64,000 bases of DNA from Candidatus Caenarcanales bacterium (GCA_022447685.1 JAKVAO010000003.1:368-64367); one strand, 5' to 3'; positions 3,401 through 57,655 are shown, counted from the stretch's first letter. Numbers and translations are program-made. The notes: generated by a model from the sequence alone, not told the origin.

Positions 3401-3401
3401 T

Positions 3402-3476
3402 TGGGGAGTCGCCAAGTGGTAAGGCAGCGGGTTTTGGTCTCGCCATTCGTGGGTTCGAATCCTACCTCCCCAGCCA
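3402..3476 (+). tRNA. tRNA-Gln (anticodon UUG)
   Basis: 75 nt cloverleaf folded by hand. Acceptor TGGGGAG/CTCCCCA, D-arm GCCA..GGCA, anticodon stem GCGGG/CTCGC with loop TTTTGGT (anticodon TTG), T-arm GTGGG-TTCGAAT-CCTAC, discriminator G plus encoded CCA. Close to E. coli tRNA-Gln. Confidence 0.85.
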
Positions 3477-3616
3477 TTATTTTTTTCTCTCAATAGTTTT
3501 TTGAAATTAATACATTGATCTCCTTTATTTCATATTAAGGCTTTTAGATTTAATATTGAAAGGGGTCATTTTTCCGCAAAAATAGAAAGCTGAAATTAAT
3601 ATAAAAATAAAAAGTT

Positions 3617-3663: not shown

Positions 3664-3738
3664 GCGCCAGTAGCTCAGGGGTAGAGCACTCGGCTTTTAA
3701 CCGATTGGTCGAAGGTTCAAATCCTTCCTGGCGCACCA
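3664..3738 (+). tRNA. tRNA-Lys (anticodon UUU)
   Basis: 75 nt. Acceptor GCGCCAG/CTGGCGC perfect, D-arm GCTC-AGGGGTA-GAGC, anticodon loop CTTTTAA (TTT), variable TGGTC, T-arm GAAGG-TTCAAAT-CCTTC, discriminator A plus CCA. Confidence 0.85.
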
Positions 3739-34010: not shown

Positions 34011-34922
34011 AGACCTCTTTCGAAACCCATACTAATGTAGGTCTGGCCAAATGTGTAAATTCAGTTTAATTTGAATTTATGAGATATGAACAAGTATGTA
34101 ATAAAAAAGCAGAAGATTTTAGGCGTTTAACAGGTATAAAAAAAGAGACCTTCACAGAAATGCTGTTGATACTTAAAGAGGCAGAGATTCTCAAAATGAA
34201 AAAAAGGGGGCGACCTCACAAACTAAGCCTAGAAGATAGGCTGTTAATGGCATTAGAATATTTAAGAGAGTATCGTACATATTTTCATGTGGCAACAAGC
34301 TATGGAATATCAGAATCAAACTGTTATCAATCAATCCGTTGGATCGAAAATACTCTGATTAAATGCGGCAAATTTACTTTCCCAGGACGAAAGGAACTTC
34401 TGAAAAGTGATATTGAATATGAGGTGATTTTAATTGATGCAACTGAGTCACCAATTGAAAGACCTAAAAAAAACAGAAAAGATATTATTCTGGAAAAAAG
34501 AAAAGACATACTTTAAAAACACAAGTTGTAGTTGATCCTAAAACACAAAAAGTAATCTGTACAAGCTTTTCAGAGGGTAAAAAGCATGATTTTAAATTAT
34601 TTGAAAAATCTCAAATTAAAATCAAAGTAGAAACCAATGTCAAAGTAGATTCTGGCTATCAAGGTCTACAAAAAATTCATAATAATACGGATCTACCAAA
34701 GAAAAAAACAAAAAAGAACCCTCTAACTCCTGAAGATAAAGTTAGTAAGTCAAAGCTTGCTAGTGACAGGGTTTTGAATGAAAATGTCATAGGGAAACTT
34801 AAACGATTTAAAATTATCTCTGACAGATATAGAAATCGAAGAAAAAGATTTGGACTTAGATTTAATCTAATAACTGGAATTTATAACTTTGAGCTAAACA
34901 GGTAGGGTTTCGAAAGAGGTCT
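34011..34922 (+). mobile_element. IS5-family (DDE_Tnp_4 / Harbinger-type) insertion sequence, 912 bp, perfect 18-bp terminal inverted repeats, AAT direct repeats
   Basis: IRL AGACCTCTTTCGAAACCC at 34011..34028. IRR GGGTTTCGAAAGAGGTCT at 34905..34922 is its exact reverse complement. Flanked by AAT at 34008..34010 and 34923..34925. Internal transposase ORF present. Confidence 0.75.
34079..34905 (+). pseudogene. IS5-family DDE transposase interrupted by -1 frameshift at an A6G run
   Basis: Frame A (34079..34516) gives the N-terminal HTH part (KKRGRPHKLSLEDRLLMALEYLREYRTYFHVATSYGISESNCYQSIRWIENTL ... IDATESPIERPKK). Frame -1 from about 34495 gives the DDE part (KKKRHTLKTQVVVD ... SGYQGLQKIH ... 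RVLNENVIGKLKRFKIISDRYRNRRKRFGLRFNLI). The junction lies in GGAAAAAAG at 34492..34500. The stop codon sits inside IRR. Confidence 0.7.
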
Positions 34923-38161: not shown

Positions 38162-39322
38162 TTAGCTCCAACCTCTTCTGTAATCAGAGTTTAATTCATC
38201 AATATTATTACCATAAATATCATATGAATTAGTCTCATAAGGGTTGTTATTAAAAATATTATTCGAACTAACAAGCGGATTATTCAAGTTAGAATATGGA
38301 TCCAGGGCAGCTTCACCATAGATAGAGTATTGGTTTCTTAGACTTGGGTTACTATAAATACCATTAACTTCTCTACGGGCACTAGCCTGCAAACCGTTAG
38401 CATAATTCGCCATAGAACTTCCAGGTATAAATCCTGAGCTGTTTAGATTAGGATTGAATTGAGAAAAAGTATCATTTTGAGTCCGGGTAGTGTAAATTGC
38501 TCCTGAATTTATGTAATTATTTCGATTAGCTGCACCAATTGCTTCAAACCTTTTCAAATCATCAGCAGATAAATCTTGTATTTTAGCAGAAATTGTATCT
38601 AAATAATCTTTTGCCTCATTACCAACATCCTTAACATACTTATATAAATTATTGTCTTTATAAACACCTTCTTCTTCAAATCTGTCATTAGCTCCTGTAA
38701 AGTAAATTCCATCAATCCTTTCAAACAGATTCTTAGTATTGGCGTTACTTTGACTGTTATTAGCAAGCTCACCTAGAATTCTCTCATCAATATTAGCAAG
38801 GGCTTCAAAACGATCCCTGTCATCTGATATATTTTTTGCATTGATAATTGTCTCAGCAGAGTTAGCACTAAGCACATCTCTAAGAGTATCTTCACCTAAA
38901 TGTTCAAACAAAGCGGCTTTTCTTGCGTCATGCAGTTCGCCATATATTTCATCAGATTTCTGGATTAGATCAGCAGGTAAAACATTAGCCTGAATAGCAC
39001 CCAGTATCATATTTTCAGCTCTTACTCTATCAAGTTTTTCTCCATTATTTACGATCTTAGAAAGACCACCGTTAAAATAACTCGCTGTAGATCTTAGTTG
39101 AGCACTTTTAAGCCTAGCCTGATCTGTTTTAGGCTCAATCAAACTACCTCCAGCTGTAGAAGCATGAGTATTTCCACTCAAAATAGCTGTATTTAGTGGT
39201 GCCGATGTCTGAATTGCTTTATGAAAAGCTTGAAGTACGTCAGTAACATCAGAGTTTACACCCACATTGGTATAAAGTTCTCCAACTTGATTAACAATAT
39301 TTACCGGATTTAAATCGTTCAT
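38162..39322 (-). CDS. hypothetical Asn/Ser-rich protein
   Basis: 386-aa ORF with N/S/Y-rich low-complexity C-terminal third. No signal peptide detected, no known motif. Co-directional with nrnA, 40 nt upstream of it. Confidence 0.45.
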   Translation of the reverse strand: MNDLNPVNIVNQVGELYTNVGVNSDVTDVLQAFHKAIQTSAPLNTAILSGNTHASTAGGSLIEPKTDQARLKSAQLRSTASYFNGGLSKIVNNGEKLDRVRAENMILGAIQANVLPADLIQKSDEIYGELHDARKAALFEHLGEDTLRDVLSANSAETIINAKNISDDRDRFEALANIDERILGELANNSQSNANTKNLFERIDGIYFTGANDRFEEEGVYKDNNLYKYVKDVGNEAKDYLDTISAKIQDLSADDLKRFEAIGAANRNNYINSGAIYTTRTQNDTFSQFNPNLNSSGFIPGSSMANYANGLQASARREVNGIYSNPSLRNQYSIYGEAALDPYSNLNNPLVSSNNIFNNNPYETNSYDIYGNNIDELNSDYRRGWS

Positions 39323-39389: not shown

Positions 39390-39506
39390 CTAAGCTTCGG
39401 CAATTATACCGAAACTAGCAATCATAAGTAAACAAAGAAAGAAAACAGCATAAAAAATGATATTTTCAAAACTTACTTGTACATTATCTTTTTTCTCAGC
39501 AGCCAT
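39390..39506 (-). CDS. 38-aa single-TM micro-protein at the 3' end of the respiratory operon
   Basis: Not in the ORF track (below its size cut-off). ATG 10 nt after the stop of the MvhD-like gene with RBS GGAGAG. MAAEKKDNVQVSFENIIFYAVFFLCLLMIASFGIIAEA has one clear TM helix. Confidence 0.4.
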   Translation of the reverse strand: MAAEKKDNVQVSFENIIFYAVFFLCLLMIASFGIIAEA

Positions 39507-39516
39507 GTGTCTCTCC

Positions 39517-39981
39517 TTAATCCTCAGCAGCTTCTTTAACTAATTCATTAGCAACATGAGATTTAAATTCTTCTATACGATCTTTGAATTCATCTACTTG
39601 AACTTCAGACATCCAAAAACCTTGTAGTCTATTCTTAGGAACAGTCTTCTTAATCATAGGAGGTCTCAAACCAAGTAATCTTTCTCTACAGAATTTATTA
39701 CCTTCTCTAAAGTGGCAATCACCAATCTGACAACCCATAGCGATAACACCATCAGCTCCAGATTTGAAAGCAGATTCGATCATTCTTGGCTGAATCATAC
39801 CGCTACAAGGAACTTGAATAACATCACAGTTATCGACACCATTAAGTTTAGTTTGATCAAGTTCACCTTCTAAGTTAACACTTCTTTCACAAGCGATAAC
39901 TGCGACTCTAACCTCATCTTTAGACTTTGGTTTTTGTTCCTCAACTGTTTCTTCTTCAGCGTTTTTTACATCTTCTGCCAT
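39517..39981 (-). CDS. MvhD/FlpD-like iron-sulfur protein (methyl-viologen-reducing hydrogenase delta-subunit family)
   Basis: CDVIQVPCSGMIQPRMIESAFKSGADGVIAMGCQIGDCHFREGNKFCRERL matches the FlpD/MvhD family signature (C..C.G........AF..GADGV.+.GC..GDCH...GN). Acidic N-terminal extension. Confidence 0.55.
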   Translation of the reverse strand: MAEDVKNAEEETVEEQKPKSKDEVRVAVIACERSVNLEGELDQTKLNGVDNCDVIQVPCSGMIQPRMIESAFKSGADGVIAMGCQIGDCHFREGNKFCRERLLGLRPPMIKKTVPKNRLQGFWMSEVQVDEFKDRIEEFKSHVANELVKEAAED

Positions 39982-40022
39982 ATTTAAAATCCCTTAGTTA
40001 AATTATACTCCTAAACTTGTAA

Positions 40023-41150
40023 CTAATCTTGCAAAGCAATTCTAATATCATCCATTACTTGAGTTGATCTATAAGTAGGAAGCTCAATTGCGTCAAAGTT
40101 ACAAGCCCCAACACAAAGTCCACACTCAGCACAACGATCATTGATAACTACTGCAAGTTCTTTGTACTTACTACCATCATTTCTTGGTGCCATATAAATA
40201 GCCTCGTAAGGACAGTCGATAGAACATAATCTGCAACCTACACATGAATCTTTATTAACTGATGCTGGCTCACTATCTTCTGACTTGACGAAATTTGGAA
40301 GTAAAGTAACAACTACTAAACCAACTATCAAAGCTGCCCAAGCACCGTAGTTACCAACAAGATCTATCAGAGGAAATAACCATAAATAGAACCAATCTAC
40401 GTCCATAATAGGAATCGAAGGTAACATTGCATTGAAGTTAGCTTCTTCACCGGATAGAGCAGGAACAGCTCCGGCTATAACTAAAACAAGTCCAGCCAAT
40501 AGTGATCCAATAGCCCAGGTTACATTTACAACTGGTCTAGAGATTCTCATATAGTGAACCCATAGAAGAATTAGTAGTGCAAATGAAGTTCCGGTGTGTA
40601 AAAAGAACGACATGCTCATAGTATAGTTAGAGATTATATCTCCGTTGATAAAACCGTGAGAAAGTGTTTCACCAATGAAAGGTAATGCAGCTAAGAACTC
40701 AGCGAATTTATTAACTATAGTTAAAGATCTTTGATCCCAAACTAAAATATAACCAGAGATACCAATTACCAACATAAATAATGATAAAGCAATTCCTGAA
40801 TACCAAGCAATAATTCTATATTCTCTATATCTATCTGTGAAATAAACTCTGATAGCGTGAAGAACTACTGTTAAATACATCGCATCAGCAGCGTACCTAT
40901 GAATTCCTCTAATTACGTCACCATATGGAAGCTTTTTAGTTATATACTCAACTGACTGATAAGCCGCTTCTAGTGTAGGAGTATAATATGCAAATAGCAA
41001 TAAACCTGATAGAAAGAGCATCCACATAAAGAAGTTTGGCATTGCACCATGGTAATAAAGTATGTTTTGCTCTGATGAAAATATCTTGTTAAGTATATCT
41101 TCTAATCTTAATATTACTTTTTGTCCGCCGCGAACGATATTAGTTAACAT
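40023..41150 (-). CDS. membrane protein: cytochrome b N-terminal-like four-helix domain fused to C-terminal 2x[4Fe-4S] ferredoxin domain
   Basis: N-terminal 230 aa has cytochrome-b-like spacing of conserved His in TM helices (RGIHRY, VLHAIRVY, FFLHTG, WVHYMR) and the GYILVWDQRS motif. C-terminus has CVGCRLCSIDCP and CAECGLCVGACNF, two CxxCxxCxxxC(P) clusters. Confidence 0.65.
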   Translation of the reverse strand: MLTNIVRGGQKVILRLEDILNKIFSSEQNILYYHGAMPNFFMWMLFLSGLLLFAYYTPTLEAAYQSVEYITKKLPYGDVIRGIHRYAADAMYLTVVLHAIRVYFTDRYREYRIIAWYSGIALSLFMLVIGISGYILVWDQRSLTIVNKFAEFLAALPFIGETLSHGFINGDIISNYTMSMSFFLHTGTSFALLILLWVHYMRISRPVVNVTWAIGSLLAGLVLVIAGAVPALSGEEANFNAMLPSIPIMDVDWFYLWLFPLIDLVGNYGAWAALIVGLVVVTLLPNFVKSEDSEPASVNKDSCVGCRLCSIDCPYEAIYMAPRNDGSKYKELAVVINDRCAECGLCVGACNFDAIELPTYRSTQVMDDIRIALQD

Positions 41151-41159
41151 AAAATTTCC

Positions 41160-41513
41160 TTATTTCTTTTTAGCCTGTGTTATTTCGTAGTTCTCTAAAG
41201 GTTTTCTATTAGCGATTACAATTGCAAAGAAGGAGCTTACCAAAGCTAAACCTAAACAGATTGAGTAACCTAAAGTCGAAATTTTCTTCTGAGCTACAGG
41301 ATCTATCTCAAAACCGAGAGTACCAAGAACAGTATTAATCATTTTTAAATTATTAAATGTTCCCTCATCAAAATATGCTGGATCAGCACCTAATAATTCA
41401 AAATAGTGCATCAATGTAAACATACCACCGAAGAAGGCAAGATTTACAAGAGCGATTAGAATCGCTAACTCAACACTTATCAATCCCTGAGATTCTTTTT
41501 TACTTTCAGCCAT
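41160..41513 (-). CDS. small two-TM membrane protein (respiratory operon)
   Basis: 117 aa, two hydrophobic helices. Overlaps the upstream ORF by 8 nt. Confidence 0.45.
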   Translation of the reverse strand: MAESKKESQGLISVELAILIALVNLAFFGGMFTLMHYFELLGADPAYFDEGTFNNLKMINTVLGTLGFEIDPVAQKKISTLGYSICLGLALVSSFFAIVIANRKPLENYEITQAKKK

Positions 41514-41823
41514 TATTTAAATCCAAATCCTTTTTACTATTAGAGCGCTCTCTTAGAAACTCATAAATTTTTTCGTAAGGAGCAAATGTTGCTCTTAAAT
41601 TATCCTTGTCCTTTTCTTCAGAATAAATTTTATAAGTCATATAAAGAACTGAAGAAGCAAAAACTATAGAACTTACTATTAAAACTAAAGTAGCTTTGTA
41701 GTTTTCACCAGCTGCATAAAGCTCATCAGTACTGAAGAACTGTGACAAAGAGATAACGGATACTAGAAAAACTAACCAGTACGTTAATGATATAGGTTTA
41801 GCTTTAGTAGTATCTTTGCTCAC
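41506..41823 (-). CDS. small two-TM membrane protein (respiratory operon)
   Basis: 105 aa, two hydrophobic helices. Start overlaps the cytochrome b stop by 1 nt. Confidence 0.45.
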   Translation of the reverse strand: MSKDTTKAKPISLTYWLVFLVSVISLSQFFSTDELYAAGENYKATLVLIVSSIVFASSVLYMTYKIYSEEKDKDNLRATFAPYEKIYEFLRERSNSKKDLDLNNG

Positions 41824-43322
41824 TAAGCAGCGGTTCCTTCTTTTTTAACTAGCAATTGAGGGGTTTCAATGAACTTCTCATAGTACCAAGTAGCTACTAA
41901 TGCTAAGAATGAACCACCGTAAAATATCCACAGACGTCCCCAAGAACCATCAGCTAGGAAACTCTCACCTAAAACTCCATCTAAAGGTAAACCAAAGTAT
42001 GGAACTGTGTGAATTCTAGAAAGATAGAGGAATAGGAACAAGAAGAACATAGAAGTAAGCTTCCAGTAGTTAAATCCTCTCATCTTACAAGAGAAATATA
42101 CACCTATAGCTACAATACCAGTGCTACCAGCAATCCAATATGGAGGGTCAGTATTGATGTTTGCGATGTTAAGAATAATCAATACAGAGAAAACGATAAA
42201 GTTAATGAATCCCATTATCGAAATAGCCATAATAAGTGGTCTTTTCGTAATAGCAGTTTCTTTACCAGTATCAAAGAAAGGTAATGATAGAACTGTTACT
42301 GGAATTAGAACTGTAACAAATGTCGCTAATACTGGCTCAATATACTTATACATTTGGTAAAGAGCTAAGAAGTACCAGTCAGATAAAATCGGTAATGGAG
42401 TTACTGAAGGATTAGCTCTAGCTCCCATCTCAGCTGGGAAAATAGTTGCAGCTGCAGCGATCATTAAAATTACTAAGAAACCTTCAGTCCAAGGTACATT
42501 AAATCTTTTCTTTTTGTTGCTGTAGAAATAAAGCTCAACTACGATTAAACCAATAGTAGAAAGAGCCATATGCATAGAATAGAATCTAGTAATAGTCGCT
42601 TGACCAATCGCACTGCCACCTAAAAGGATTTGCTGCGTAGTCATACCAATATTGAAGTTGATGTATTGGTTTAAAAGCTTCATATCAAGAAGAATTCCAC
42701 CACCTTCAGATACTGGAATAGCAGGTAAGCTCGTAGGAACACCAATCTTAATCAATTGATTAACAACAGTCTCACCTAAGAATGCAAGGTTTATACCGAA
42801 TTGATCCATATAGCCAGGGAAAGTAGCAAATACTTTAGTCGCCCAAAAAGCTCTCTGGTTCCAAATTAAAAGATAACCCGATAAACCTGAATAAAAACCT
42901 AATAACATTAAGAAGAAACAGATCCATAAATTGAATTCTCTGTTTCCTTTATAGTCAGCACAGATGAACATTCTGTACATCTTTAAAGTACCAACGATGA
43001 TAAAAGCATCCGCACCATATTTGTGCATACCTCTGATCAATGCCCCAAAAGGGACATGTTCTTGGATTCTGATGATACTGTCGTATGCTTGCTCAGCAGT
43101 AGGAATATAAAAACCAACTAAAAGAGCACCTGTAGCAACAGTTACCATCCAAGTTAACCATTGAAGAGCGCCTAATTTATACCAAACATTTTCTCTTTGT
43201 TTATCAACAAAAGTCTCATCAAAAAAATCAATATTCTTAAACCTATCAAGAAAGAACTTCTTAACAGTGTCTAATGAAGGAATATATTGTGCAATATTTG
43301 AACCGATACCAGTTACTGACAT
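41823..43322 (-). CDS. cytochrome b subunit of a Rieske/cytochrome b (bc-type) complex, long unsplit form
   Basis: 499 aa. The N-terminal cytochrome b domain contains GALIRGMHKYGADAFII...KMYRMF, and the C-terminal domain contains PAEMGARANP. About 10-11 TM helices. Confidence 0.8.
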   Translation of the reverse strand: MSVTGIGSNIAQYIPSLDTVKKFFLDRFKNIDFFDETFVDKQRENVWYKLGALQWLTWMVTVATGALLVGFYIPTAEQAYDSIIRIQEHVPFGALIRGMHKYGADAFIIVGTLKMYRMFICADYKGNREFNLWICFFLMLLGFYSGLSGYLLIWNQRAFWATKVFATFPGYMDQFGINLAFLGETVVNQLIKIGVPTSLPAIPVSEGGGILLDMKLLNQYINFNIGMTTQQILLGGSAIGQATITRFYSMHMALSTIGLIVVELYFYSNKKKRFNVPWTEGFLVILMIAAAATIFPAEMGARANPSVTPLPILSDWYFLALYQMYKYIEPVLATFVTVLIPVTVLSLPFFDTGKETAITKRPLIMAISIMGFINFIVFSVLIILNIANINTDPPYWIAGSTGIVAIGVYFSCKMRGFNYWKLTSMFFLFLFLYLSRIHTVPYFGLPLDGVLGESFLADGSWGRLWIFYGGSFLALVATWYYEKFIETPQLLVKKEGTAA

Positions 43323-43324
43323 AA

Positions 43325-43942
43325 TTATGAAATACCTCCGGACTCAAGACTCTCAATAGCAAGCATTCCATCATTGACATTAAAATTAAATTTAAATGGT
43401 GAACGCGGTGCTGGACCTGAAACTACCTTCCCTCTACCTTTAGTATCTTCAAGCATAGGATCGTATACTGAAAGGTGACAAGGACAAGCAAAAACTTTTT
43501 GACCAGGATTAGGAGTGTAGTTATAACCAGCTGCAACTTCAGCTTCGTTAGGAACGAAGTTAAATACACAACCTAAATGTGGACAAACTCTACTAAAAAC
43601 TACGAACTTAGGACTACCATCAGCTTCATTTGCAGGTAAACGAACTGCCGCTCCCGGAATGGTTTTGATCTGCTGATTAATAGAAGTATATTCTCTGTTG
43701 GTTTCTTGGAACATAAAGTATTTAAAAGACCAAGGTTCAGGAAAATCATTAACATCAAACTTAATAACCTTTACAGGCTTAGGTTTATCTGGTGTTTTAA
43801 AGATCTCTAAAGTCGCTAAAGGACCAGAACTTGGTTTCAAATATCTAACAAATGGAGATAAAAGTGCGGCAGATATAGTACCAATAATAGGTACTGATAA
43901 TATTACCTTTATTAAATCTCTTTTTTCAAATTTCATGCTCAT
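43325..43942 (-). CDS. Rieske [2Fe-2S] iron-sulfur protein
   Basis: N-terminal TM anchor. Rieske boxes CPHLGC and CPCHLSVYD. Confidence 0.85.
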   Translation of the reverse strand: MSMKFEKRDLIKVILSVPIIGTISAALLSPFVRYLKPSSGPLATLEIFKTPDKPKPVKVIKFDVNDFPEPWSFKYFMFQETNREYTSINQQIKTIPGAAVRLPANEADGSPKFVVFSRVCPHLGCVFNFVPNEAEVAAGYNYTPNPGQKVFACPCHLSVYDPMLEDTKGRGKVVSGPAPRSPFKFNFNVNDGMLAIESLESGGIS

Positions 43943-43978
43943 CTCTAAATATTCCTTAAAATCTTATCTTTTAATAAT

Positions 43979-44764
43979 TTACCCTTTATTCTCAGTCTCT
44001 AATGACTTCTTATATTCTTCTAAATTCTTTCTTCCTTGATCAAGTCTATCAAGTTCTTGCGAAAAACCAAATTGACGAACGTATCTAACTAATTTCCAAA
44101 TCATTTCTTCATCAAATTTATAACCTTGATCAAAGTCAATTCTATTCTTCCATGCAGGCATAGCAGTCCATGGAATACCATGAGTTAACTCTTTGTGCAA
44201 TTTATTATCAGTTCTAGTATAAAGTCTCTCAAACATATTAAAGTTAGCAGGCATTGGCTTTAGTGCTTTATGTAAGTTACCATCACCGTGTCCTCTAGTA
44301 CCATGACATACTGCACAGTTACCACCAAAAATAGAACTCATCTTTGCAAGCTCATCAGAATTTAACTTATAATAACCAAGGATTTCAGCTCTGGTATACA
44401 TTAAAGCATCCCACATCTCATCACGACTAAGCTTATCTTTAAAACCAGGCATTCCTTTAGCATTACCATTTTTTATAACTTCATATTGTTCCTCAGGTGA
44501 TCTTGCTCTCATCATTTTTTTTGATAAGAAACCATTTTTAGGATGATCTCCATGACATTGTGCACAATTTTGTTTATAAACCCACTTACCATTTTCAATA
44601 GATGGGTCATGAGAAGGAAACTCATTAAGAGCGAGTTTCGGATCCCATGGCATTACTAAACTACTACCTAAGACTTCTTTCTCATAAGATTCAGCAGCTA
44701 AAGCTACGTTTAAAGAAACTGTGAAAACTGAGATTAGAATTATAAGCTTTATGATTTGCTTCAT
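43979..44764 (-). CDS. di-heme cytochrome c (CcoP-like soluble part or cytochrome c4-like), own signal/anchor
   Basis: Two CxxCH motifs (CAQCH, CAVCH). N-terminal MKQIIKLIILISVFTVSLNVALAA. Start set to ATG 44764; the 44818 start of the ORF-track model was rejected. Confidence 0.7.
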   Translation of the reverse strand: MKQIIKLIILISVFTVSLNVALAAESYEKEVLGSSLVMPWDPKLALNEFPSHDPSIENGKWVYKQNCAQCHGDHPKNGFLSKKMMRARSPEEQYEVIKNGNAKGMPGFKDKLSRDEMWDALMYTRAEILGYYKLNSDELAKMSSIFGGNCAVCHGTRGHGDGNLHKALKPMPANFNMFERLYTRTDNKLHKELTHGIPWTAMPAWKNRIDFDQGYKFDEEMIWKLVRYVRQFGFSQELDRLDQGRKNLEEYKKSLETENKG

Positions 44765-44783
44765 TGATTTAAATTTCTCCGTA

Positions 44784-44978
44784 TTAATATCCATAAAAAG
44801 GTATCCAGCTAATCGCACACCAAATTATTACTAATATGTACATAACGATTAAAAATAGAGGTGGCTTATTATGTCCAACTTTATATTCATTCGTAGGTTG
44901 CGCTCCATGAGGCTTTACTCCAGGTGGTAAACCTGTTGATATTGGCGACATTTCATCAAATTGATTATTATCTGTCAT
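44784..44978 (-). CDS. small membrane protein resembling the N-terminal TM segment of CcoP
   Basis: VGHNKPPLFLIVMYILVIIWCAISWIPFYGY resembles the CcoP N-terminus (GHEWDGI.E.DNPLP.WW...F...I.W...YW..YP). 64 aa, in a different frame from the downstream di-heme cytochrome c. Confidence 0.45.
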   Translation of the reverse strand: MTDNNQFDEMSPISTGLPPGVKPHGAQPTNEYKVGHNKPPLFLIVMYILVIIWCAISWIPFYGY

Positions 44979-44991
44979 AACTTAAAATCTC

Positions 44992-45207
44992 CTAGCAGTC
45001 CATCATCTCCAACTTAGCAGCTTCAATATCTTTAAACTGCCCAGTTCTAAAGCCCCAATATGCAAGAATACTTGCAATACCGAAGAAACTAATACAAAGT
45101 AAACAGAAAATGGCTATGCCTTCTTTGTTAAAAGTAGCTAAAATCCACTCTCTGAATTCTAAAAGCAGATTAGTGTCCACCATGTCCTCCTTTAGATGAT
45201 TTACCAC
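44992..45207 (-). CDS. CcoQ/FixQ-like small single-TM subunit
   Basis: 71 aa with one TM helix (GIAIFCLLCISFFGIASILAYWGF) and FixQ-like flanking sequence. An alternative ATG exists at 45183. Overlaps the ccoO 3' end. Confidence 0.4.
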   Translation of the reverse strand: MVNHLKEDMVDTNLLLEFREWILATFNKEGIAIFCLLCISFFGIASILAYWGFRTGQFKDIEAAKLEMMDC

Positions 45208-46252
45208 CTTTTTTCTTATTCTTAGCTAGTTTTTCATAATTATCAGTAATCCTTTCAGGTAAAGCAGATTGTGACTGCCAAGCTTCAGAATCAATAGTCT
45301 GATATGGTTCAATGATAGGTGATTTATCCTGAGGTAGTGTCTTCAAGAAAGCAACTAGATACCACATTTGCTCAGGCTCTAACTTAAGTTTCCATCTAGG
45401 CATCCTCGATCCTGGAACACCTTCAGCAACTCTCCAGTACCAAGTTTTATCAGAGTAAGCTTTGTAGTAAGGTCTTGAGAAGTTAGCAGGTTTTTTAGCC
45501 ATTGCTAAAGCATTCGGACCATTACCCAAACCATTCAAACCATGACACACAGCACAATTTTGTCTGAAGATACCCGCTCCAGCATTAGCAGCAGCAGCAC
45601 TATCAACATTAGGTTTGTGATGCTCAGATGCATGCCAGAAAGCCTCATCAGCTTCAGGGTAATAAGCTTCATAAATATGTCTGTTCTCAGGATCATCGAA
45701 TCTTTTTCTTCCTAAAGTCTGTAGATAAGAAACTAAATAACCTAAGTCATCATCAGACAAGTAGCTAAATGAAGGCATAATAGAACCTGGATTGTACTCT
45801 CTAGGGTTCTTCAAATGACCAATGTGCCATTCATCTGGAAGTTTGCCACCTTCATTAGATAAATCAGGACCAGTTCTAGATGTACCTAAAACATTAGGAG
45901 TTTCGTTAGCGTAGTCGCCAGCGTGAACTCTAGAACCAAAATCTCTATCCTGAGGTCTAACAAATTGTGAGTGACAATAAAAACAGCCTTCTCTTACATA
46001 GATTGCTCTACCTTTACCGGCATCATTTAATACAGGTAAGCCTTTTTTATCTCTTTTTATAGTTCCGTCTGCTTGCTTCTCAACATACTCCATCGCATAT
46101 TTACTAGGCTCAGACTTTAATGAAGGTAAATTAGGTATCGCGACGACTACTGTATAAATTATCGCAAATGAAAATGCAACAACTATAGCAGGCAGGATGT
46201 AACCTTTTGCACCTACTGATTTATTTTCGTTTGAATTCTTATCTTCTGACAT
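45170..46252 (-). CDS. ccoO: cbb3-type cytochrome c oxidase subunit II (CcoO) fused to an additional C-terminal mono-heme cytochrome c domain
   Basis: N-terminal TM, CcoO heme motif GCFYCHSQFVRP plus GPDL. A second CxxCH (CAVCHG) lies in the C-terminal 150 aa. Gly/Lys-rich tail. Confidence 0.8.
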   Translation of the reverse strand: MSEDKNSNENKSVGAKGYILPAIVVAFSFAIIYTVVVAIPNLPSLKSEPSKYAMEYVEKQADGTIKRDKKGLPVLNDAGKGRAIYVREGCFYCHSQFVRPQDRDFGSRVHAGDYANETPNVLGTSRTGPDLSNEGGKLPDEWHIGHLKNPREYNPGSIMPSFSYLSDDDLGYLVSYLQTLGRKRFDDPENRHIYEAYYPEADEAFWHASEHHKPNVDSAAAANAGAGIFRQNCAVCHGLNGLGNGPNALAMAKKPANFSRPYYKAYSDKTWYWRVAEGVPGSRMPRWKLKLEPEQMWYLVAFLKTLPQDKSPIIEPYQTIDSEAWQSQSALPERITDNYEKLAKNKKKGGKSSKGGHGGH

Positions 46253-46254
46253 TT

Positions 46255-47652
46255 TTATTTAGAATCTCCTTCAATCGGAACTGCAACTTTAATCTCTAAC
46301 TCAGATGAAATAGGCTTTTCTCTCATAGTCATATAAATATTAAATCCAAATAAACAACTACTCAAGAACATTAGAACTCCACCAATACTTCTAACAAGCC
46401 ACATAGGAGGAAGTACTAAGCCCCACTGAGCAACTGGGTAACCAAGTGCCCAACCAACAGCTTGCTGTAAACCACCAATAGTTAAACTAGAGAAGAATAA
46501 GAAGAAACCTATCAATAGTAACCAATAGTGCCACTTAACTAAACGCACACTATAAATTCTCTGACCTGTTAATCTTTGTAAACCGTAATAAATAGCACCA
46601 ATTACAAAGAAGGTGAAAGTACCTAATAGAGCTGCATGAGCGTGACCAACTACCCATTGAGTAAAGTGAATGTACCAGTTAACACCTCTAGTGGCTTGGA
46701 ATGGCCCTTGTAGGCAAGTTACTAAATACCAAAAAGCACCAGTAAGAACAAATCTTATAGGCATATTAGTAGTTAGCATCCACCAACTTCCTTTCATAGT
46801 CATATAGAAGTTAACTAATACTGAGATAACAGGAATAACTAATGCTGCTGAGAAAATTACAGCAAGAGCTTTTAGCCACTCAGGAACTGGTGACTGCAAT
46901 AAATGGTGAGTACCAGTCGGTGCATAGAAAAATGCAATAGTCCAGAAGCCAAACATAGATAAACTATGGCTCCAGATTGGTTTGCCACTCATCTTAGGAA
47001 GCATATAGTATGCAATACCAACACCTAGTACCGTAAACCACATCCCTAATATATTATGTCCGTAGAACCAATTCAGAATACCGTCATTCAAACCTTCCAT
47101 AGCAACGAAAGTTCTGTTACCTACGATAAAGATTATTGGCATCCAGAAAAAGGCACCCATAATGTACCAAACAGAAACATAAAGTTTCTTGACCGTTCTA
47201 TTTAAAAGTGTTCTAAAGAGGTTATATGAAACAGAACCGAGAGCAACAACAAAAAGAATATCAATAGGTTCTCTGTATTCAGCATATTCTCTACCTTCTG
47301 TGTATCCATTAAGAAGGGTAAGCATACCGACGAATATACCTATATTCCACAAATAACAGGAAAAATTGGCCAACTTCTCTGAGTGAAGCTTAGTTTTGCA
47401 CAATGCAGGAATGATATATAAACATGCGCCAATGCTCGCCATAGACAGCCAACCAAAAGCTACAGTGTTTACATGAACAGGTCTCAACCTCGTAAAGGAA
47501 AGCTGAGCAACTCCCTTAGTTAGATCTGGGAATGAAAACTCTAACGCACCCAGAAGACCAGCTCCCATACCGACAATGAGCCAGACTATCGCCGAAAACA
47601 TGAAAAATTTCGCTGCACTGCCATCTTCACTACTAAAAATTCTACGGATCAT
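46255..47652 (-). CDS. ccoN: cbb3-type cytochrome c oxidase subunit I (CcoN)
   Basis: 12-TM heme-copper oxidase subunit I of cbb3 type. Motifs HVNTVAFGWL and WVVGHAHAALLG, plus conserved His ligands. Confidence 0.9.
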   Translation of the reverse strand: MIRRIFSSEDGSAAKFFMFSAIVWLIVGMGAGLLGALEFSFPDLTKGVAQLSFTRLRPVHVNTVAFGWLSMASIGACLYIIPALCKTKLHSEKLANFSCYLWNIGIFVGMLTLLNGYTEGREYAEYREPIDILFVVALGSVSYNLFRTLLNRTVKKLYVSVWYIMGAFFWMPIIFIVGNRTFVAMEGLNDGILNWFYGHNILGMWFTVLGVGIAYYMLPKMSGKPIWSHSLSMFGFWTIAFFYAPTGTHHLLQSPVPEWLKALAVIFSAALVIPVISVLVNFYMTMKGSWWMLTTNMPIRFVLTGAFWYLVTCLQGPFQATRGVNWYIHFTQWVVGHAHAALLGTFTFFVIGAIYYGLQRLTGQRIYSVRLVKWHYWLLLIGFFLFFSSLTIGGLQQAVGWALGYPVAQWGLVLPPMWLVRSIGGVLMFLSSCLFGFNIYMTMREKPISSELEIKVAVPIEGDSK

Positions 47653-47800
47653 ATACCTTTACAGCTACATTCTATCAAGAGCTTTCGATCTGTCTACAAA
47701 AAAATATGAGATTTCTTAACTTTTCTGTTTTAAGTTACAGAATTGGAATCTTTAGCTTTTTACAAAGAATAATTTTATGTGCAAAACCCTAAAAGTCTTT

Positions 47801-47817
47801 TTGAGAAAGGTTCTCAA
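47801..47817. promoter_or_regulatory. TTGAGA-N5-TCTCAA perfect palindrome about 150 bp upstream of ccoN (candidate Crp/Fnr-type operator)
   Basis: Perfect 6-bp arms with a 5-bp spacer at 47801..47817, in the 350-bp divergent intergenic region. Confidence 0.3.
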
Positions 47818-53621: not shown

Positions 53622-55601
53622 TTGGAATTCAGATTAGAAATAATTGATAGAAAAAGCCTGGGGGCTAGAAATAACATCAAAGTCAGCTTGCTTGACGAAA
53701 ATGATGAAATTCAAGCTATTAGCTATATAAATTTATCATCAAATAGCAGGCGAAGAATAAAATTTGAAATAATTAAGAGTAAAGTATCACTAAATACTTT
53801 TTATAATATTCTCGTTGATTATAGAGACGGTGATATTGATGAATTTGAGTTAAGTCTTAATAGAAACCAAGAGCAAAATATCATAAACCAAGAAATAGAG
53901 CGAAATAGTAACTTTGAAAACCTCAGCATCGAGGACATTTTATTCAATAAAGTTAGTTTTGAACCGACCAGATTCGGTAATGGAATGCAAACCTTTATTT
54001 TCAAGGAAAATGATACTTTTAAAGTTAAAATCCCAATCTTTGTAAATAAAAAGAATGTCACTAGAACTAGAGTAAGAGTTAATAGGGAAGCTAAGTCAAA
54101 TATAAATAATCCAACCTTAAATACTATCGAAAATATTCAGCTAGGTTCATCAAATAATTTCGCGCAAATATCTCAAGAGGATAATACATTAATTATTAAG
54201 TCAAGTAATCCAGTTTATGAACCAATATTCATCAATAATAAACAGCAAATAGGAATTGGTGTAAGAGAACCACAAGCAAGCTTAGATATTGCAAAGCAAT
54301 CACCTAACCAAGCACATATAGTTTTAAGAGATGCCCCATTAAGTGAAAAGCCCATTAACGGAGGACTTGAGTATCATAATGGAAGATTATATTTTACAGC
54401 CAATGGACAAAGAAAAATAATTGTTGCAAACTCAACTGGTGACGCAGGAACAGTAGTGATAAATCAAACAATTACAGGATCAAGCAGTTCATCACCAACA
54501 GAAGTAGCAAACTTAAATATAGTTGATCTTCAAACAAGTACAGTAATTGACTTTACAGAAGAAAGAAACTTTTTCACGAAAGATATATCTGCAAATACAA
54601 CTTTTACATTTACAAATCTTAAAGCAGGGCATAAAGTGAGTCTAGTTCTAAAAAGTAACGCTAGCGCCTTATATAACTTAAGTTTCCCAAGCTATGTAAG
54701 CACAAATGATAATTTAAATCAAATTAATTCTGAATATAAAATAATTGATTTAGAAGTGATTAACGAAGATAGTGGTCAAGAAATAGTGATAGCAAGTAGT
54801 AAATCTCTTGGAAATAAAATTTATAATTTCAATGATGCATCTATTATATTTAGCTTGAGAAAAATTATTGATTCTTATGGTGGAAATGCAATAGATATTA
54901 GAAGAGCTAGTGATAACAGTACTTTGGAGATTGGCTTTGACGGATCTGGGAATCTTGATTCAGCTAGCATCAATACATTCTGTGCTGCTACAGACTGTTT
55001 TGTTGTAACTTGGTATAACCAGGTAGATACTTCTAATAATGCTACACAAACAAATGTTAATTTCCAACCTAAAATTTATGATTCTGTAACAGGGCTTATA
55101 ACAAACAATAGTGGCTTTCCAGCCATTCTAGGAGATAACAGTAATGATGAAATGATTTTTGACTTATCTTCGATATCAGAAAAATCATATGGTGTTTTTG
55201 TCGTTACTGAGAGATTAAGTACTGGATCAAATATGTATTTCGTTAGTGCGAATAATGATGACTTTCATCACTTCGGCTTTAGAGATGATACAACAGTGAG
55301 ATTAAGTCACTTTGGTTTTGGTAATGAATTAGATGCAACTACTACAGGCTATACAAGTGCAACAACAGAACTTTATACGTTCTTATCAAGTAGCTCAGCT
55401 GGAAAAATGATTAGAAGAAATACTATTACTCTGGGATCAAGCATTAATACAAATGGACAAAAAGCATTTGCTGGCTCGTTATTTAGATTTAGGAACTGGA
55501 ACTATAATGGTTCTATTAGTGAGGTAATAGTAATACCGAAAGATATAATTGGTGACTACGGTAATATGGAGAGCAATATTCAAACTTTTTATGGGCTATA
55601 A
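53622..55601 (+). CDS. large hypothetical protein, paralog A of a tandem pair (conserved C-terminal roughly 330-aa domain)
   Basis: 659 aa. C-terminal region aligns residue-by-residue with the next gene (FSLRKIIDSYGGNAIDIRRASDN...TDCFVVTWYNQVDT...QPKIYDSVTGLI...FGFRDD). Confidence 0.5.
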   Translation: MEFRLEIIDRKSLGARNNIKVSLLDENDEIQAISYINLSSNSRRRIKFEIIKSKVSLNTFYNILVDYRDGDIDEFELSLNRNQEQNIINQEIERNSNFENLSIEDILFNKVSFEPTRFGNGMQTFIFKENDTFKVKIPIFVNKKNVTRTRVRVNREAKSNINNPTLNTIENIQLGSSNNFAQISQEDNTLIIKSSNPVYEPIFINNKQQIGIGVREPQASLDIAKQSPNQAHIVLRDAPLSEKPINGGLEYHNGRLYFTANGQRKIIVANSTGDAGTVVINQTITGSSSSSPTEVANLNIVDLQTSTVIDFTEERNFFTKDISANTTFTFTNLKAGHKVSLVLKSNASALYNLSFPSYVSTNDNLNQINSEYKIIDLEVINEDSGQEIVIASSKSLGNKIYNFNDASIIFSLRKIIDSYGGNAIDIRRASDNSTLEIGFDGSGNLDSASINTFCAATDCFVVTWYNQVDTSNNATQTNVNFQPKIYDSVTGLITNNSGFPAILGDNSNDEMIFDLSSISEKSYGVFVVTERLSTGSNMYFVSANNDDFHHFGFRDDTTVRLSHFGFGNELDATTTGYTSATTELYTFLSSSSAGKMIRRNTITLGSSINTNGQKAFAGSLFRFRNWNYNGSISEVIVIPKDIIGDYGNMESNIQTFYGL

Positions 55602-55603
55602 AA

Positions 55604-57655
55604 ATGAATAAACTGATAATACTATTACTATTACTATCCATAAATTTTAGTTCATCAAGGGCTAATACTAATATAGATTTAGAAGAACTCATCTGCACAT
55701 CTGGTAATTGTGATATCAAAATATCACTAGATAAAAATAGCTTACTAAAAAAGGACTCTAAAATTAGGTTCGATCTATTAATAAATAGTGAAAACCTAAA
55801 TACAGAGAAGGATTTTTTTCAAATTGAGCTATCTAAGTTGAGTAGAGAAGATGAGGAGAAAATATTAAAAACCTCTATATTACTTAATAAGAGAAACTCT
55901 AAAAAAAAATATTATAAGATACCATTTGAAATTAAACAGAATCAAATCTCAGACTTCTTCCTAGTATCACTTCAAGACTCTAATACCTTGGTTACAGAAT
56001 ATATTTTAGATTCAAAGTCACTTCTTGAAATAGATGAACAAACTATAAATACAGAGAAACAAATGATAATTAATAGTAATGACTTAGCTGAGTTTATTAA
56101 TAATAAACTTGAGGTGGGAATAGAAAATAATAAAATACCGGGAATCTCAGTTAGGAAAGTCGATACAGAAAACTATAAAATCACTTTACCCAGAAATAGT
56201 ACAGAAAATATTTTAATTGGTAATTTAAATGATATTAAAAATAATGATAGATTGATTGAGGAAGATATTGAACAAAAGCAAATTGAAGAATTTATAGAAC
56301 CACTGAAGCAATTCAAGCAAAACTTAAATCCACTTAAAACTGACTCGATTATTTTAAGAGCTGATAAAAGCGGTGATGAATTAGTCGAAGGGTCTTTAGA
56401 ATTTGATGGTGAAAACCTTTATCTAGTCAAACCTTCAGGGAAAAATATCATCGCTAGTAACCTAAACGGTAAACCTAACTTTGTCCTCAATATCAATGAC
56501 CAAAGTCAAAACTCAAGTACTCCTCAAGTAAGTAACGCTATATCTAGAAAAACAAATACTGGATCAAATATTGACTTTAGTGATGAGCTAAGCTTCTTGA
56601 ACAATGATGTTAATAATGATATTAGTTTAAATTATTCAAATTATAAATTAGGGCATAAAGTGCGCCTTCAACTTAATAACAGTTCAAATAAATTTATTAG
56701 GATTAATTTTCCATCCAATTCTATAACTGATATAGATAATGAACTACCTAATTATTTTAGTAATGATCGAATAATCATAGATCTATTAGTTCTTAATGAT
56801 AATACAGGTCAGGAAGTAATTTATGTAAAAAAAATTAATGAAAGTACTAATCTTATAGATGAGGCGGACTATATATTTTCGCTTAGAAAACTTAGGGATA
56901 GTTATCAAGGACCTGCTATCTCCATAAGGAGAGCTAGTGACAACCACACTAGAGCGATTAATTTTTTAGACAATGGTGAATTAGATACAAATACAATTAA
57001 TAATTTTTGTACTGGGACTGACTGCACTGTATTTACATGGTTTAATCAAAGCGATACCTTGAAACATGCGACTCAAGCTACTGTCACAACCGAAGAGCCA
57101 AAGATTTATGATTCTGTAAGTGGATTAATCAATAATAGTTCTGGGAAAGTAGCAATATTATCAGATGGAGTTGATGATAATCTGGAATTTGATTTAGCAA
57201 ATATAGCGAATAAAAGTTTCACAGCAATAGGTGTTATAGAGAGACTTTCTGGCGTTAATGACAACTACTTTCTCACAAATAGACAAGCCTCAGCGAATAA
57301 AGGACTTCACCTAGGTTTCAGAGATTCTGATGAGATTAGATTTGGTCAATGGTTTAATGATCTTGATGCATCTATAACAGCCTTTAGTTCTGCCAATCTT
57401 GAATTACAAATATTCAGATCTAATCTTAGTATTGGCAAAGAAATATTTCGAAATTCAAATTTAGCTGCATCCAATGGAAATACAGAAGCTATAAATCCTA
57501 CAATTCTAAACCAAGGAAGAATTTTTGGAGCTGAACTAGCTAGTTTTAAGTTCGATGGAACTATTAGTGAAATAATTATCTTCTCTAAAGCTATTACAGA
57601 TAATGAAAAAAACATTTTAGAAGAAGCTATTAATAATTATTATTCTATTTACTAG
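55604..57655 (+). CDS. large hypothetical secreted protein, paralog B of the tandem pair
   Basis: 683 aa, signal peptide MNKLIILLLLLSINFSSSRANT. C-terminus FSLRKLRDSYQGPAISIRRASDN...TDCTVFTWFNQSDT...EPKIYDSVSGLI...LGFRDSD. Its stop TAG is directly abutted by the glmS stop on the other strand (TAGCTA). Confidence 0.55.
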   Translation: MNKLIILLLLLSINFSSSRANTNIDLEELICTSGNCDIKISLDKNSLLKKDSKIRFDLLINSENLNTEKDFFQIELSKLSREDEEKILKTSILLNKRNSKKKYYKIPFEIKQNQISDFFLVSLQDSNTLVTEYILDSKSLLEIDEQTINTEKQMIINSNDLAEFINNKLEVGIENNKIPGISVRKVDTENYKITLPRNSTENILIGNLNDIKNNDRLIEEDIEQKQIEEFIEPLKQFKQNLNPLKTDSIILRADKSGDELVEGSLEFDGENLYLVKPSGKNIIASNLNGKPNFVLNINDQSQNSSTPQVSNAISRKTNTGSNIDFSDELSFLNNDVNNDISLNYSNYKLGHKVRLQLNNSSNKFIRINFPSNSITDIDNELPNYFSNDRIIIDLLVLNDNTGQEVIYVKKINESTNLIDEADYIFSLRKLRDSYQGPAISIRRASDNHTRAINFLDNGELDTNTINNFCTGTDCTVFTWFNQSDTLKHATQATVTTEEPKIYDSVSGLINNSSGKVAILSDGVDDNLEFDLANIANKSFTAIGVIERLSGVNDNYFLTNRQASANKGLHLGFRDSDEIRFGQWFNDLDASITAFSSANLELQIFRSNLSIGKEIFRNSNLAASNGNTEAINPTILNQGRIFGAELASFKFDGTISEIIIFSKAITDNEKNILEEAINNYYSIY

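Follow-up and report, generated by a model that had tools for sequence, protein, structure and literature searches.

Gene clusters that join complex III to complex IV are already on record for the Melainabacteria. The passages on this cluster in Matheus Carnevali et al. 2019 (PMC6349859, citing Soo et al. 2014, 2017) describe a complex III/IV fusion in which petB, petB and petC adjoin ccoN and ccoO, and name Obscuribacter phosphatis and Melainabacteria HO7A and BJ4A as carriers. The lines of a preprint that paraphrase Soo et al. have the same sense. Here, we analysed a unit of this kind in a stretch of 64,000 nucleotides (nt) from a Candidatus Caenarcanales bacterium (GCA_022447685.1, JAKVAO010000003.1:368-64367), referred to below as the window. 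The unit consists of twelve minus-strand open reading frames (ORFs) in a row, from 47652 to 39390, and encodes a C-family (cbb3-type) oxidase, a Rieske/cytochrome b complex and additional redox proteins. It combines two petB-like genes and petC with adjoining ccoN and ccoO in a Vampirovibrionia genome, which is how the literature defines the fusion, and the Obscuribacter loci (L043 and L048 in our collection) match the window in gene order, with identities of 37-55%. The linkage of complexes III and IV, which the sequence-only reading of the window had contrasted with the separate loci of most Proteobacteria, is already known for this lineage. The proteobacterial frame was itself wrong, as the lineage is Vampirovibrionia (Melainabacteria), order Caenarcaniphilales. 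The type genome of the Caenarcaniphilales was described as non-respiring (PMC4040986).

The main result of this work concerns the two cytochromes b of the unit. The larger one (499 residues) has lost both ligands of heme bH and retains an invariant quinol oxidation (Qo) site, and it is accompanied at every locus examined by a paralog with four heme-ligating histidines, fused to a ferredoxin domain. The published melainabacterial descriptions, in the portions that deal with the cluster, speak of b6f-like subunits and a type C oxidase, and mention neither the missing bH ligands nor the ferredoxin/MvhD wire, CcoS or the micro-proteins. The missing bH ligands, the invariant Qo site, the four-His paralog and the 38-residue peptide of the unit were not found in the searchable literature, with Soo et al. 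2017 outside the search, and they may still be published.

Several other known systems share single traits with the unit. The actinobacterial bcc-aa3 complex (QcrCAB and CtaCDEF) likewise has linked genes and a diheme cytochrome c that replaces c1 and bridges to the oxidase, with weak similarity at the level of QcrC; unlike the unit, it has an A-family oxidase, a homodimer of two-heme cytochrome b and no cytoplasmic Fe-S module. The proteobacterial bc1-cbb3 assemblies (Pseudomonas aeruginosa 8smr/8snh and Rhodobacter capsulatus 6xkw) contain both enzyme families, and their CcoN and CcoO align with those of the unit, whereas their genes lie at separate loci and they use a mono-heme c1 with a soluble or anchored c, canonical CcoP/CcoQ and a two-heme cytochrome b. 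The anammox Rieske/b complexes (Kuste4569-4574 and Kustd1480-1485; PMC12954380) have a b6-like cytochrome b, a high-potential Rieske protein with Ser and Tyr, a cytoplasmic Fe-S chain proposed to accept the low-potential Qo electron, and NAD(P) oxidoreductase modules comparable to the flavoprotein of the distant locus L087 described below. They were modelled as homodimers with normal hemes bP and bN, heme cN and multiheme c subunits, and have no oxidase; in contrast, the unit has no heme cN Cys, one of its b subunits is without bN, and its partner is a cbb3 oxidase. In the engineered cross-inactivated bc1 heterodimers (PMC7908018, section 3.3) the Qo site and bL come from one monomer and the n-side half from the other, and turnover needs bL-bL transfer. 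These are laboratory constructs, whereas the unit would be a natural, gene-encoded version. Finally, QmoABC and the Hdr/Mvh modules resemble the unit in combining a membrane cytochrome b with a ferredoxin-like Fe-S domain, either fused or bound, and with an MvhD-type [2Fe-2S] protein; there the b protein is of the NarI/HdrE type, whereas it is of the PetB/b6 type in the unit, which also has no HdrA-like flavoprotein or hydrogenase.

Organization of the Unit

All twelve ORFs were present. The promoter-like site and the gene products, in the order of the genes, are as follows (TM, transmembrane).

47669-47696, minus strand: promoter-like site (TAGACA, 16 nt, TAGAAT) with a TG preceding the -10 hexamer (extended -10), 17 nt 5' of the ccoN ATG
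46255-47652, minus strand: CcoN, 465 residues, catalytic subunit of a C-family (cbb3-type) heme-copper O2 reductase (PF00115, E 8e-91)
45170-46252, minus strand: CcoO with a C-terminal mono-heme cytochrome c domain, 360 residues, one N-terminal TM helix (PF02433 FixO and PF13442)
44992-45207, minus strand: CcoS/FixS-like cbb3 maturation protein, 71 residues, one TM helix (PF03597, TIGR00847)
44784-44978, minus strand: conserved 64-residue single-TM protein with C-terminal SW(I/V)PF(F/Y)GY, presumed small subunit
43979-44818, minus strand: diheme c-type cytochrome with a signal peptide or anchor, likely start ATG 44764 (two PF13442/PF00034 domains)
43325-43942, minus strand: Rieske [2Fe-2S] protein, 205 residues, one N-terminal TM helix (PF00355)
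41823-43322, minus strand: long cytochrome b, 499 residues, with a b6-like N domain, a subunit-IV-like domain and extra C-terminal TM helices (PF00033 and PF00032)
41506-41823, minus strand: 105-residue two-TM protein, conserved small subunit (no Pfam family)
41160-41513, minus strand: 117-residue two-TM protein (no Pfam family)
40023-41150, minus strand: second cytochrome b (helices A-F) with a cytoplasmic ferredoxin domain for two [4Fe-4S] clusters, 375 residues (PF00033, E 1e-29, and Fer4 families)
39517-39981, minus strand: MvhD/FlpD-like [2Fe-2S] protein, 154 residues, no TM helix (PF02662, E 1e-23)
39390-39506, minus strand: 38-residue single-TM micro-protein with a conserved C-terminus, FGxxAE(A/F), last gene

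With the longest ORFs, the eleven gaps from ccoN to the 38-residue ORF measure 2, -38, 13, -35, 36, 2, -1, -8, 9, 41 and 10 nt. The sequence-only reading had claimed a spacing of 40 nt or less, or overlap, throughout; this applies to ten gaps, and the remaining one is 41 nt. For the diheme cytochrome c, an internal ATG at 44764 yields the signal peptide MKQIIKLIILISVFTVSLNVALA and has GGAG 13 nt upstream. It is probably the start codon, and its use turns the overlap of 35 nt into a gap of 19 nt.

The window proteins were compared by tblastn with 80 genome loci, which are cited below by their L numbers. More than 7.2 kb of sequence preceded the gene of the ferredoxin-fused cytochrome b in 64 loci, and ccoN was in place in every one of these; all 56 loci in which all large genes were called were colinear with the window, at 45-98% identity and with median gaps of -8 to +32 nt. 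This agreement shows that the arrangement is not due to chance. The gaps, the Pfam assignments and the conserved order thus bear out the proposal of one tightly spaced, co-directional unit of oxidase, Rieske/cytochrome b and additional redox genes.

A search for expression signals gave a promoter-like site only 5' of ccoN. The site is the top-scoring sigma-70-like match on the minus strand, as judged by match to the consensus only. The approximately 105 nt that precede ccoN, both hexamers included, are nearly invariant among the window, L016 and L001, and the distal intergenic DNA is not. Within the unit, no terminator-like site exceeded the expectation from shuffled sequence. The genes upstream of ccoN are divergent, and those downstream of the 38-residue ORF vary even between close relatives, which places the end of the unit at this ORF. 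Most likely, the unit is transcribed as one from a promoter upstream of ccoN, as its layout suggests. The divergent intergenic region also holds, about 150 nt 5' of ccoN (47801-47817), a perfect 7-3-7 palindrome, TTGAGAAAGGTTCTCAA (TTGAGAA-N3-TTCTCAA), which may be an operator or a chance occurrence. It was rejected as a conserved operator, having one mismatch in L016 and being absent from L001 and every other locus.

The Main Cytochrome b Lacks the Heme bH Ligands

The two heme bL ligands of the 499-residue cytochrome b, H100 and H251, were found in 75 of 75 orthologs and are the sole conserved histidines of the family. The helix-B histidine that ligates heme bH is replaced by K114 (Lys in 25 and Arg in 50 of the orthologs), and the helix-D histidine by Y265, which is present in all 75 inside an invariant E-x-Y motif. 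In phmmer alignments with cytochrome b6, the same replacing residues stand opposite b6 His100 and His202. No other conserved His, Met or Cys was found in the family. The Qo motifs GYLLIWNQRAFWATK and LSDWYFL(G/A)LY are invariant in the 75 orthologs, in a family only about 50% identical overall; they contain IWNQR and SDWY, variants of the cd-loop W-D/N-Q and ef-loop PEWY motifs. The canonical set of four His for bL and bH is therefore missing from the 499-residue protein, whereas the ferredoxin-fused cytochrome b has it.

A search of 1.84 billion representatives with the 499-residue cytochrome b delimited a sharply bounded clade of 25 proteins (E ≤ 1e-30). All of its members are without the helix-B bH His; 107 of the 150 representatives listed have all four His. 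The best NCBIfam match of both b proteins of the unit is ExtP. Judged by its residues, the 499-residue protein is predicted to ligate heme bL only, and its inability to bind heme bH would make a textbook Q-cycle within that subunit impossible. The plain call of "cytochrome b" made from the sequence earlier overlooked this, its most unusual trait.

The Ferredoxin-Fused Cytochrome b and MvhD

In the second cytochrome b, H84, H98, H185 and H199, the four His for two b hemes, are invariant in 23 homologs. Seven of the eight cluster Cys are also invariant in this set; the remaining one, C313, is kept in 90% of it or more. The protein has the Qo-like motifs VWD(E/Q)RS and xDWF. The Cys that binds heme ci/cn (b6 position 35) is absent from the unit's cytochromes b, which have Tyr or Lys/Ala there, and no bc1-type Qi His or Asp was recognisable in the ferredoxin-fused protein. 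In an AlphaFold2 (AF2) model the membrane part was usable and showed six TM helices, which would place the ferredoxin domain on the N-terminal side, in the cytoplasm. The closest match to this domain is the ferredoxin domain at the C-terminus of HdrA (9sfi_A; 5odc_A, residues 576-646).

A further motif of the ferredoxin-fused cytochrome b, N-x-x-Y-Y-H-G-A (residues 29-36), does not vary among 78 orthologs, and its His34 adjoins the b6 heme-ci Cys position. His34 is reminiscent of a His in anammox complexes for which AlphaFold3 (AF3) models led to a proposed role as ligand of an additional n-side heme; the N-terminal alignment is noisy and establishes no equivalence.

The MvhD protein scored 83.8 bits against PF02662 (cutoff 22.3) and matched 5odc_D at E 1e-16. 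Its C31, C59, C84 and C89, the four Cys expected for a [2Fe-2S] cluster, are invariant in 71 orthologs.

Rieske Protein, c-Type Cytochromes and Oxidase

The Rieske protein of the window barely exceeded the Pfam cutoff (22.5 bits). Its boxes CPHLGC and CPCHLSVYD, with the cluster ligands and the disulfide Cys, are nevertheless invariant across 73 orthologs. In the same set Ser158 is invariant and position 160 is Tyr in 64 sequences and Phe in 9. Ser and Tyr at these places raise the cluster potential, according to the rule given in PMC12954380.

The diheme cytochrome c contains CAQCH at residue 85 and CAVCH at residue 168. Its similarity to CcoP (8snh_G, 2e-5; 3mk7_C, 3e-4) and to actinobacterial QcrC (6hwh_M and 8ovc_O, about 4e-4) is weak and of roughly the same degree, and it scored only 47.7 bits against TIGR00782 (cutoff 180). 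No match to the cytochrome c1 or f families was obtained among the proteins of the unit, and the diheme c is found instead; it appears from its sequence to stand in for cytochrome c1/f and for CcoP. The unit encodes exactly four CxxCH motifs, in the CcoO fusion and in the diheme c, and no separate soluble cytochrome c.

The alignment of CcoN with P. stutzeri 3mk7_A (E 2e-71) spans the whole protein. The six His that ligate heme b, heme b3 and CuB are kept together with the cross-linked Tyr of helix VII, and Glu323 is replaced by Gln. The kept ligands and Tyr identify CcoN as a C-family O2 reductase, and with the CuB His set and this Tyr intact, a nitric oxide reductase was excluded. CcoO scored 102 bits against PF02433 (cutoff 29.6) and matched the CcoO chains in the PDB at E 6e-22. 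It consists of the FixO and Cytochrome_CBB3 domains; CFYCH at residue 90 is the single heme motif expected of CcoO, CAVCH at residue 233 is the second of the fusion, and the top NCBIfam match is NF011054, "bifunctional subunit II/cytochrome c". At the equivalog level all NCBIfam scores of the unit's proteins were far under the cutoffs (for CcoN, 295 bits against 583 for TIGR00780), so these proteins are divergent members of their families.

Pfam upheld the earlier calls of CcoN, CcoO with its cytochrome c, the diheme c, Rieske, cytochrome b, the cytochrome b(N) fusion with two [4Fe-4S] and MvhD. Two small ORFs had to be renamed. The 71-residue product, labelled ccoQ-like before, is CcoS/FixS-like instead. 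The window copy gave 18 bits with PF03597, which is below the cutoff, and 11 of 11 orthologs matched this family (best E 8e-9); TIGR00847 ccoS was the sole NCBIfam match, and CcoQ (FixQ) was dropped on this evidence. The FixS gene lies elsewhere within the cluster in two other lineages, at the end in L081 and at the start in L085. The 64-residue product, labelled ccoP-N-like, was rejected as the N-terminal anchor of CcoP: Pfam searches on 12 orthologs (E up to 10) and a PDB profile search gave no FixP_N/CcoP signal. It was found in 65 loci and in Holophagaceae L081 (50 residues, E 1e-9), and its residues E31, P40, L43, S57, W58, F61 and Y64 are invariant. Neither a canonical diheme CcoP with a FixP_N anchor nor CcoQ was found in the unit. 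CcoP and CcoQ are not universal in C-family oxidases.

Distribution of the Module

The homologs carry the names Candidatus Melainabacteria or Cyanobacteria. The nearest loci come from metagenome-assembled genomes (MAGs) of Caenarcaniphilales, and the closest one, L016, has 84-100% amino-acid identity, with most genes at 90% or more. The full module, including micro-proteins of 50, 96 and 42 residues and the FixS gene, recurs in Holophagaceae (Acidobacteriota; L081:5524-14488), and the part from cytochrome b to the terminal micro-ORF is present on a truncated Armatimonadota contig, so that the gene order is conserved across three phyla. Two further lineages (L085:3832-12909 and L086:5278-13597) have the module with small rearrangements; in L086 no diheme c intervenes between the small ORFs and Rieske, and an extra 138-residue mono-heme c follows the micro-ORF. 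The GC content of L081, L085 and L086 is 45 to 66%, against 34% in the window.

A distant variant, L087:946-8471, comprises a Rieske protein without the Ser/Tyr donors, a b::ferredoxin fusion, MvhD and a bH-less cytochrome b with E-x-Y, together with two small ORFs, one of which (87 residues) takes the position of the 105-residue protein. Its bH-less cytochrome b is 686 residues long owing to an insertion of about 300 residues after helix A. Both an oxidase and c-type cytochromes are missing, and MvhD is followed by an insertion of two Fe-S proteins and a flavoprotein with NAD_binding_1 and DHODB_Fe-S_bind domains. This extension of the core by Fe-S proteins and an NAD-binding flavoprotein indicates that the cytoplasmic wire is a functional redox link.

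Four loci (L029, L036, L051 and L067) were considered as stand-alone b::ferredoxin-MvhD loci and set aside, because their contigs end about 0.4-1.7 kb upstream and are uninformative on independent copies. Eight MAG records with a Vampirovibrionia-type cluster (L004, L010, L012, L035, L039, L057, L058 and L075) are titled Proteobacteria, Gammaproteobacteria, Drouetiella, Oculatellaceae, Flavobacterium psychrophilum or Chloroflexota, which are probably binning or labelling errors.

Proposed Electron Flow and Alternatives

With somewhat better than even confidence, we read the unit as a complex III-IV respiratory module of Vampirovibrionia, which would form one transcription unit and one membrane supercomplex with a heterodimeric b core and pass electrons from quinol to O2 without a soluble cytochrome c. 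The mono-heme 499-residue cytochrome b would oxidise quinol at its Qo site. The high-potential electron would pass from the Rieske protein to the diheme c, the two c hemes of the CcoO fusion and CcoN, and so to O2. The low-potential electron would move from bL to heme bL' of the paralogous cytochrome b, the other half of the heterodimeric core, and on to its bH'. From there it would be handed through the two [4Fe-4S] clusters and the [2Fe-2S] cluster of MvhD to a soluble redox partner in the cytoplasm. An obligate III-IV supercomplex, as the sequence-only reading had suggested, is plausible because the gene set has no cytochrome c1/f and four membrane-associated c hemes.

The case for a heterodimer is one of logic. 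Besides bH, the bL of the partner monomer is normally the one cofactor that bL can reach. Where a cytochrome b has an intact Qo site and bL only, the second electron finds no way out within the subunit, so the two-heme paralog would be best placed as the other half of the b dimer. Electron transfer between the bL hemes of the monomers is established for bc1 (PMC7908018, section 3.3). As to direction, we tentatively favour, at less than even confidence, an outward-to-inward flow by analogy with the bifurcation proposed for anammox Rieske/b complexes, in which a Qo-type split would direct one of the two electrons to O2 and the other to a cytoplasmic acceptor of low potential. We favour it because the main cytochrome b has lost bH in each of the lineages sampled, and Qi as well, because no bc1-type Qi residues can be recognised in the second cytochrome b, because the Rieske protein has both potential-raising hydrogen-bond donors, Ser158 and Tyr160, and because the same logic was laid out for the anammox complexes (PMC12954380). 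The whole combination of a natural heterodimer, obligatory bL-to-bL' transfer, delivery through two [4Fe-4S] clusters and MvhD and a hard-wired cbb3 oxidase, in a modular core spread between phyla (oxidase in Vampirovibrionia and Holophagaceae, NAD-binding module in L087, and a further occurrence on the truncated Armatimonadota contig), is doubtful as a package.

Several points weigh against this scheme. The outward-to-inward route would require a low-potential quinone; with a high-potential quinone, reduction of the Fe-S clusters by this route would be energetically uphill. Where MvhD has been characterised, it acts as a relay for electrons that come from a donor enzyme, as expected of flow the other way. 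An MvhD partner (HdrA flavoprotein, hydrogenase or NAD-binding protein) was not found in the unit or in the scanned rest of the window, where the neighbours are housekeeping genes. The ferredoxin domain of the AF2 model has a pLDDT (predicted local distance difference test) score below 50, so that its docking under heme bH is unreadable. Co-transcription and physical association are deduced from the gene arrangement only. Finally, the substitutes for the bH ligands in the 499-residue protein show conservation of their own (E263 and Y265 invariant, position 114 always Lys or Arg) and could form another site.

The last point can be taken further. If K/R114, E263 and Y265 bound an unusual heme or a quinone in the old bH pocket, a homodimer of the 499-residue protein could run a Q-cycle, with the b::ferredoxin fusion and MvhD as accessories; that E-x-Y persists even in the distant L087 protein speaks for such a site. 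We nevertheless regard this as quite improbable. The helix-B position is Arg in two thirds of the orthologs, and Arg is not known to serve as an axial ligand of heme; no further conserved His, Met or Cys is on hand, and the two-heme paralog co-occurs at every locus. The cbb3 oxidase, the Rieske/b complex and the b::ferredoxin-MvhD pair may also be separate enzymes, merely co-located and co-regulated, and linked by the quinone pool and diffusible or anchored cytochromes. Proteobacterial bc1 and cbb3 do work apart and associate only partly (supercomplex cases PDB 8smr and 6xkw), b6-like cytochromes without a Rieske protein exist, with ExtP as the top match of both b proteins here, and L087 has the core without the oxidase. 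We consider this unlikely, since a bL-only cytochrome b on its own has no outlet for the second electron, the unit encodes neither c1/f nor a separate soluble c, and order and tight coupling, with four micro-proteins included, are kept across the sampled loci, up to the full set in Holophagaceae.

The alternative that leaves the supercomplex and the heterodimeric b core in place reverses the wire. A low-potential cytoplasmic donor, such as reduced ferredoxin, a hydrogenase or another dehydrogenase on MvhD, would feed bH' and a quinone-reducing site, and the result would be a self-contained chain from donor to O2, by analogy with the n-side ferredoxin input to cytochrome b6f in cyclic electron flow. 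This is thermodynamically easier, as the potentials of [4Fe-4S] and [2Fe-2S] clusters typically lie under those of b hemes and the transfer would be downhill. In the Mvh-Hdr complex (5odc family) MvhD relays electrons from the hydrogenase; in the passages of PMC6349859 on this lineage, ferredoxin is proposed as the donor of a melainabacterial complex I without NuoEFG; and a single Qi site per dimer suffices in cross-inactivated bc1 (PMC7908018). Electron entry through MvhD would, however, leave the loss of bH from the main cytochrome b in every lineage unexplained, the second cytochrome b has no recognisable bc1-type Qi residues or heme ci Cys, and no donor enzyme is encoded nearby. We consider it possible, though not probable.

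The melainabacterial III-IV cluster features in arguments on when and how aerobic respiration arose beside the cyanobacteria, and the relevant passages treat it as an ordinary b6f-like complex with a cbb3 oxidase; the sequences analysed here say otherwise. If the heterodimer proposed above is true, it would be a natural case of obligatory electron transfer between the halves of a bc-type dimer. For bc1, the role of inter-monomer transfer has been called unclear (PMC7908018). Outward-to-inward flow, if true, would add a second, aerobic case to the proposal, made for anammox bacteria, of a quinol-driven bifurcation towards the cytoplasm. A biochemical answer would apply widely, since at least three phyla carry the module and metagenomes from freshwater, groundwater and wastewater contain it in abundance.

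Small Membrane Proteins

The start of the 105-residue ORF overlaps the stop of the 499-residue cytochrome b. This protein was found in 54 loci and in Holophagaceae L081 (96 residues, E 1e-5). The 117-residue protein gave tblastn matches only in L001-L023, L031 and L034, which are the closer, Caenarcaniphilales-like relatives; other lineages have unrelated small ORFs at its position. A micro-ORF ending in FGxxAE(A/F) lies 3' of MvhD in 68 of 68 loci, and also in Holophagaceae (42 residues) and Armatimonadota (45 residues). The 38-residue ORF is a real gene.

Other Features of the Window

Directly 3' of the unit, and outside the module, an ORF at 38162-39322 (minus strand) encodes a 386-residue Asn/Ser-rich protein without a Pfam family. 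A protein with 25-30% identity occurs at another position in the two closest relatives, and it is absent elsewhere. At 34079-34516 (plus strand), a 145-residue ORF contains an HTH_Tnp_4 domain (the helix-turn-helix of DDE transposases) without a catalytic domain and is probably a mobile-element remnant. Two adjacent paralogous ORFs at 53622-55601 and 55604-57655 (plus strand; 659 and 683 residues) gave weak partial matches to the alpha-L-arabinofuranosidase B catalytic domain. Two tRNA genes lie at 3402-3473 and 3664-3735 (plus strand). The first is overlapped by a 583-residue ORF on the opposite strand (1742-3493), the upstream part of which is, because of this overlap, probably not coding.

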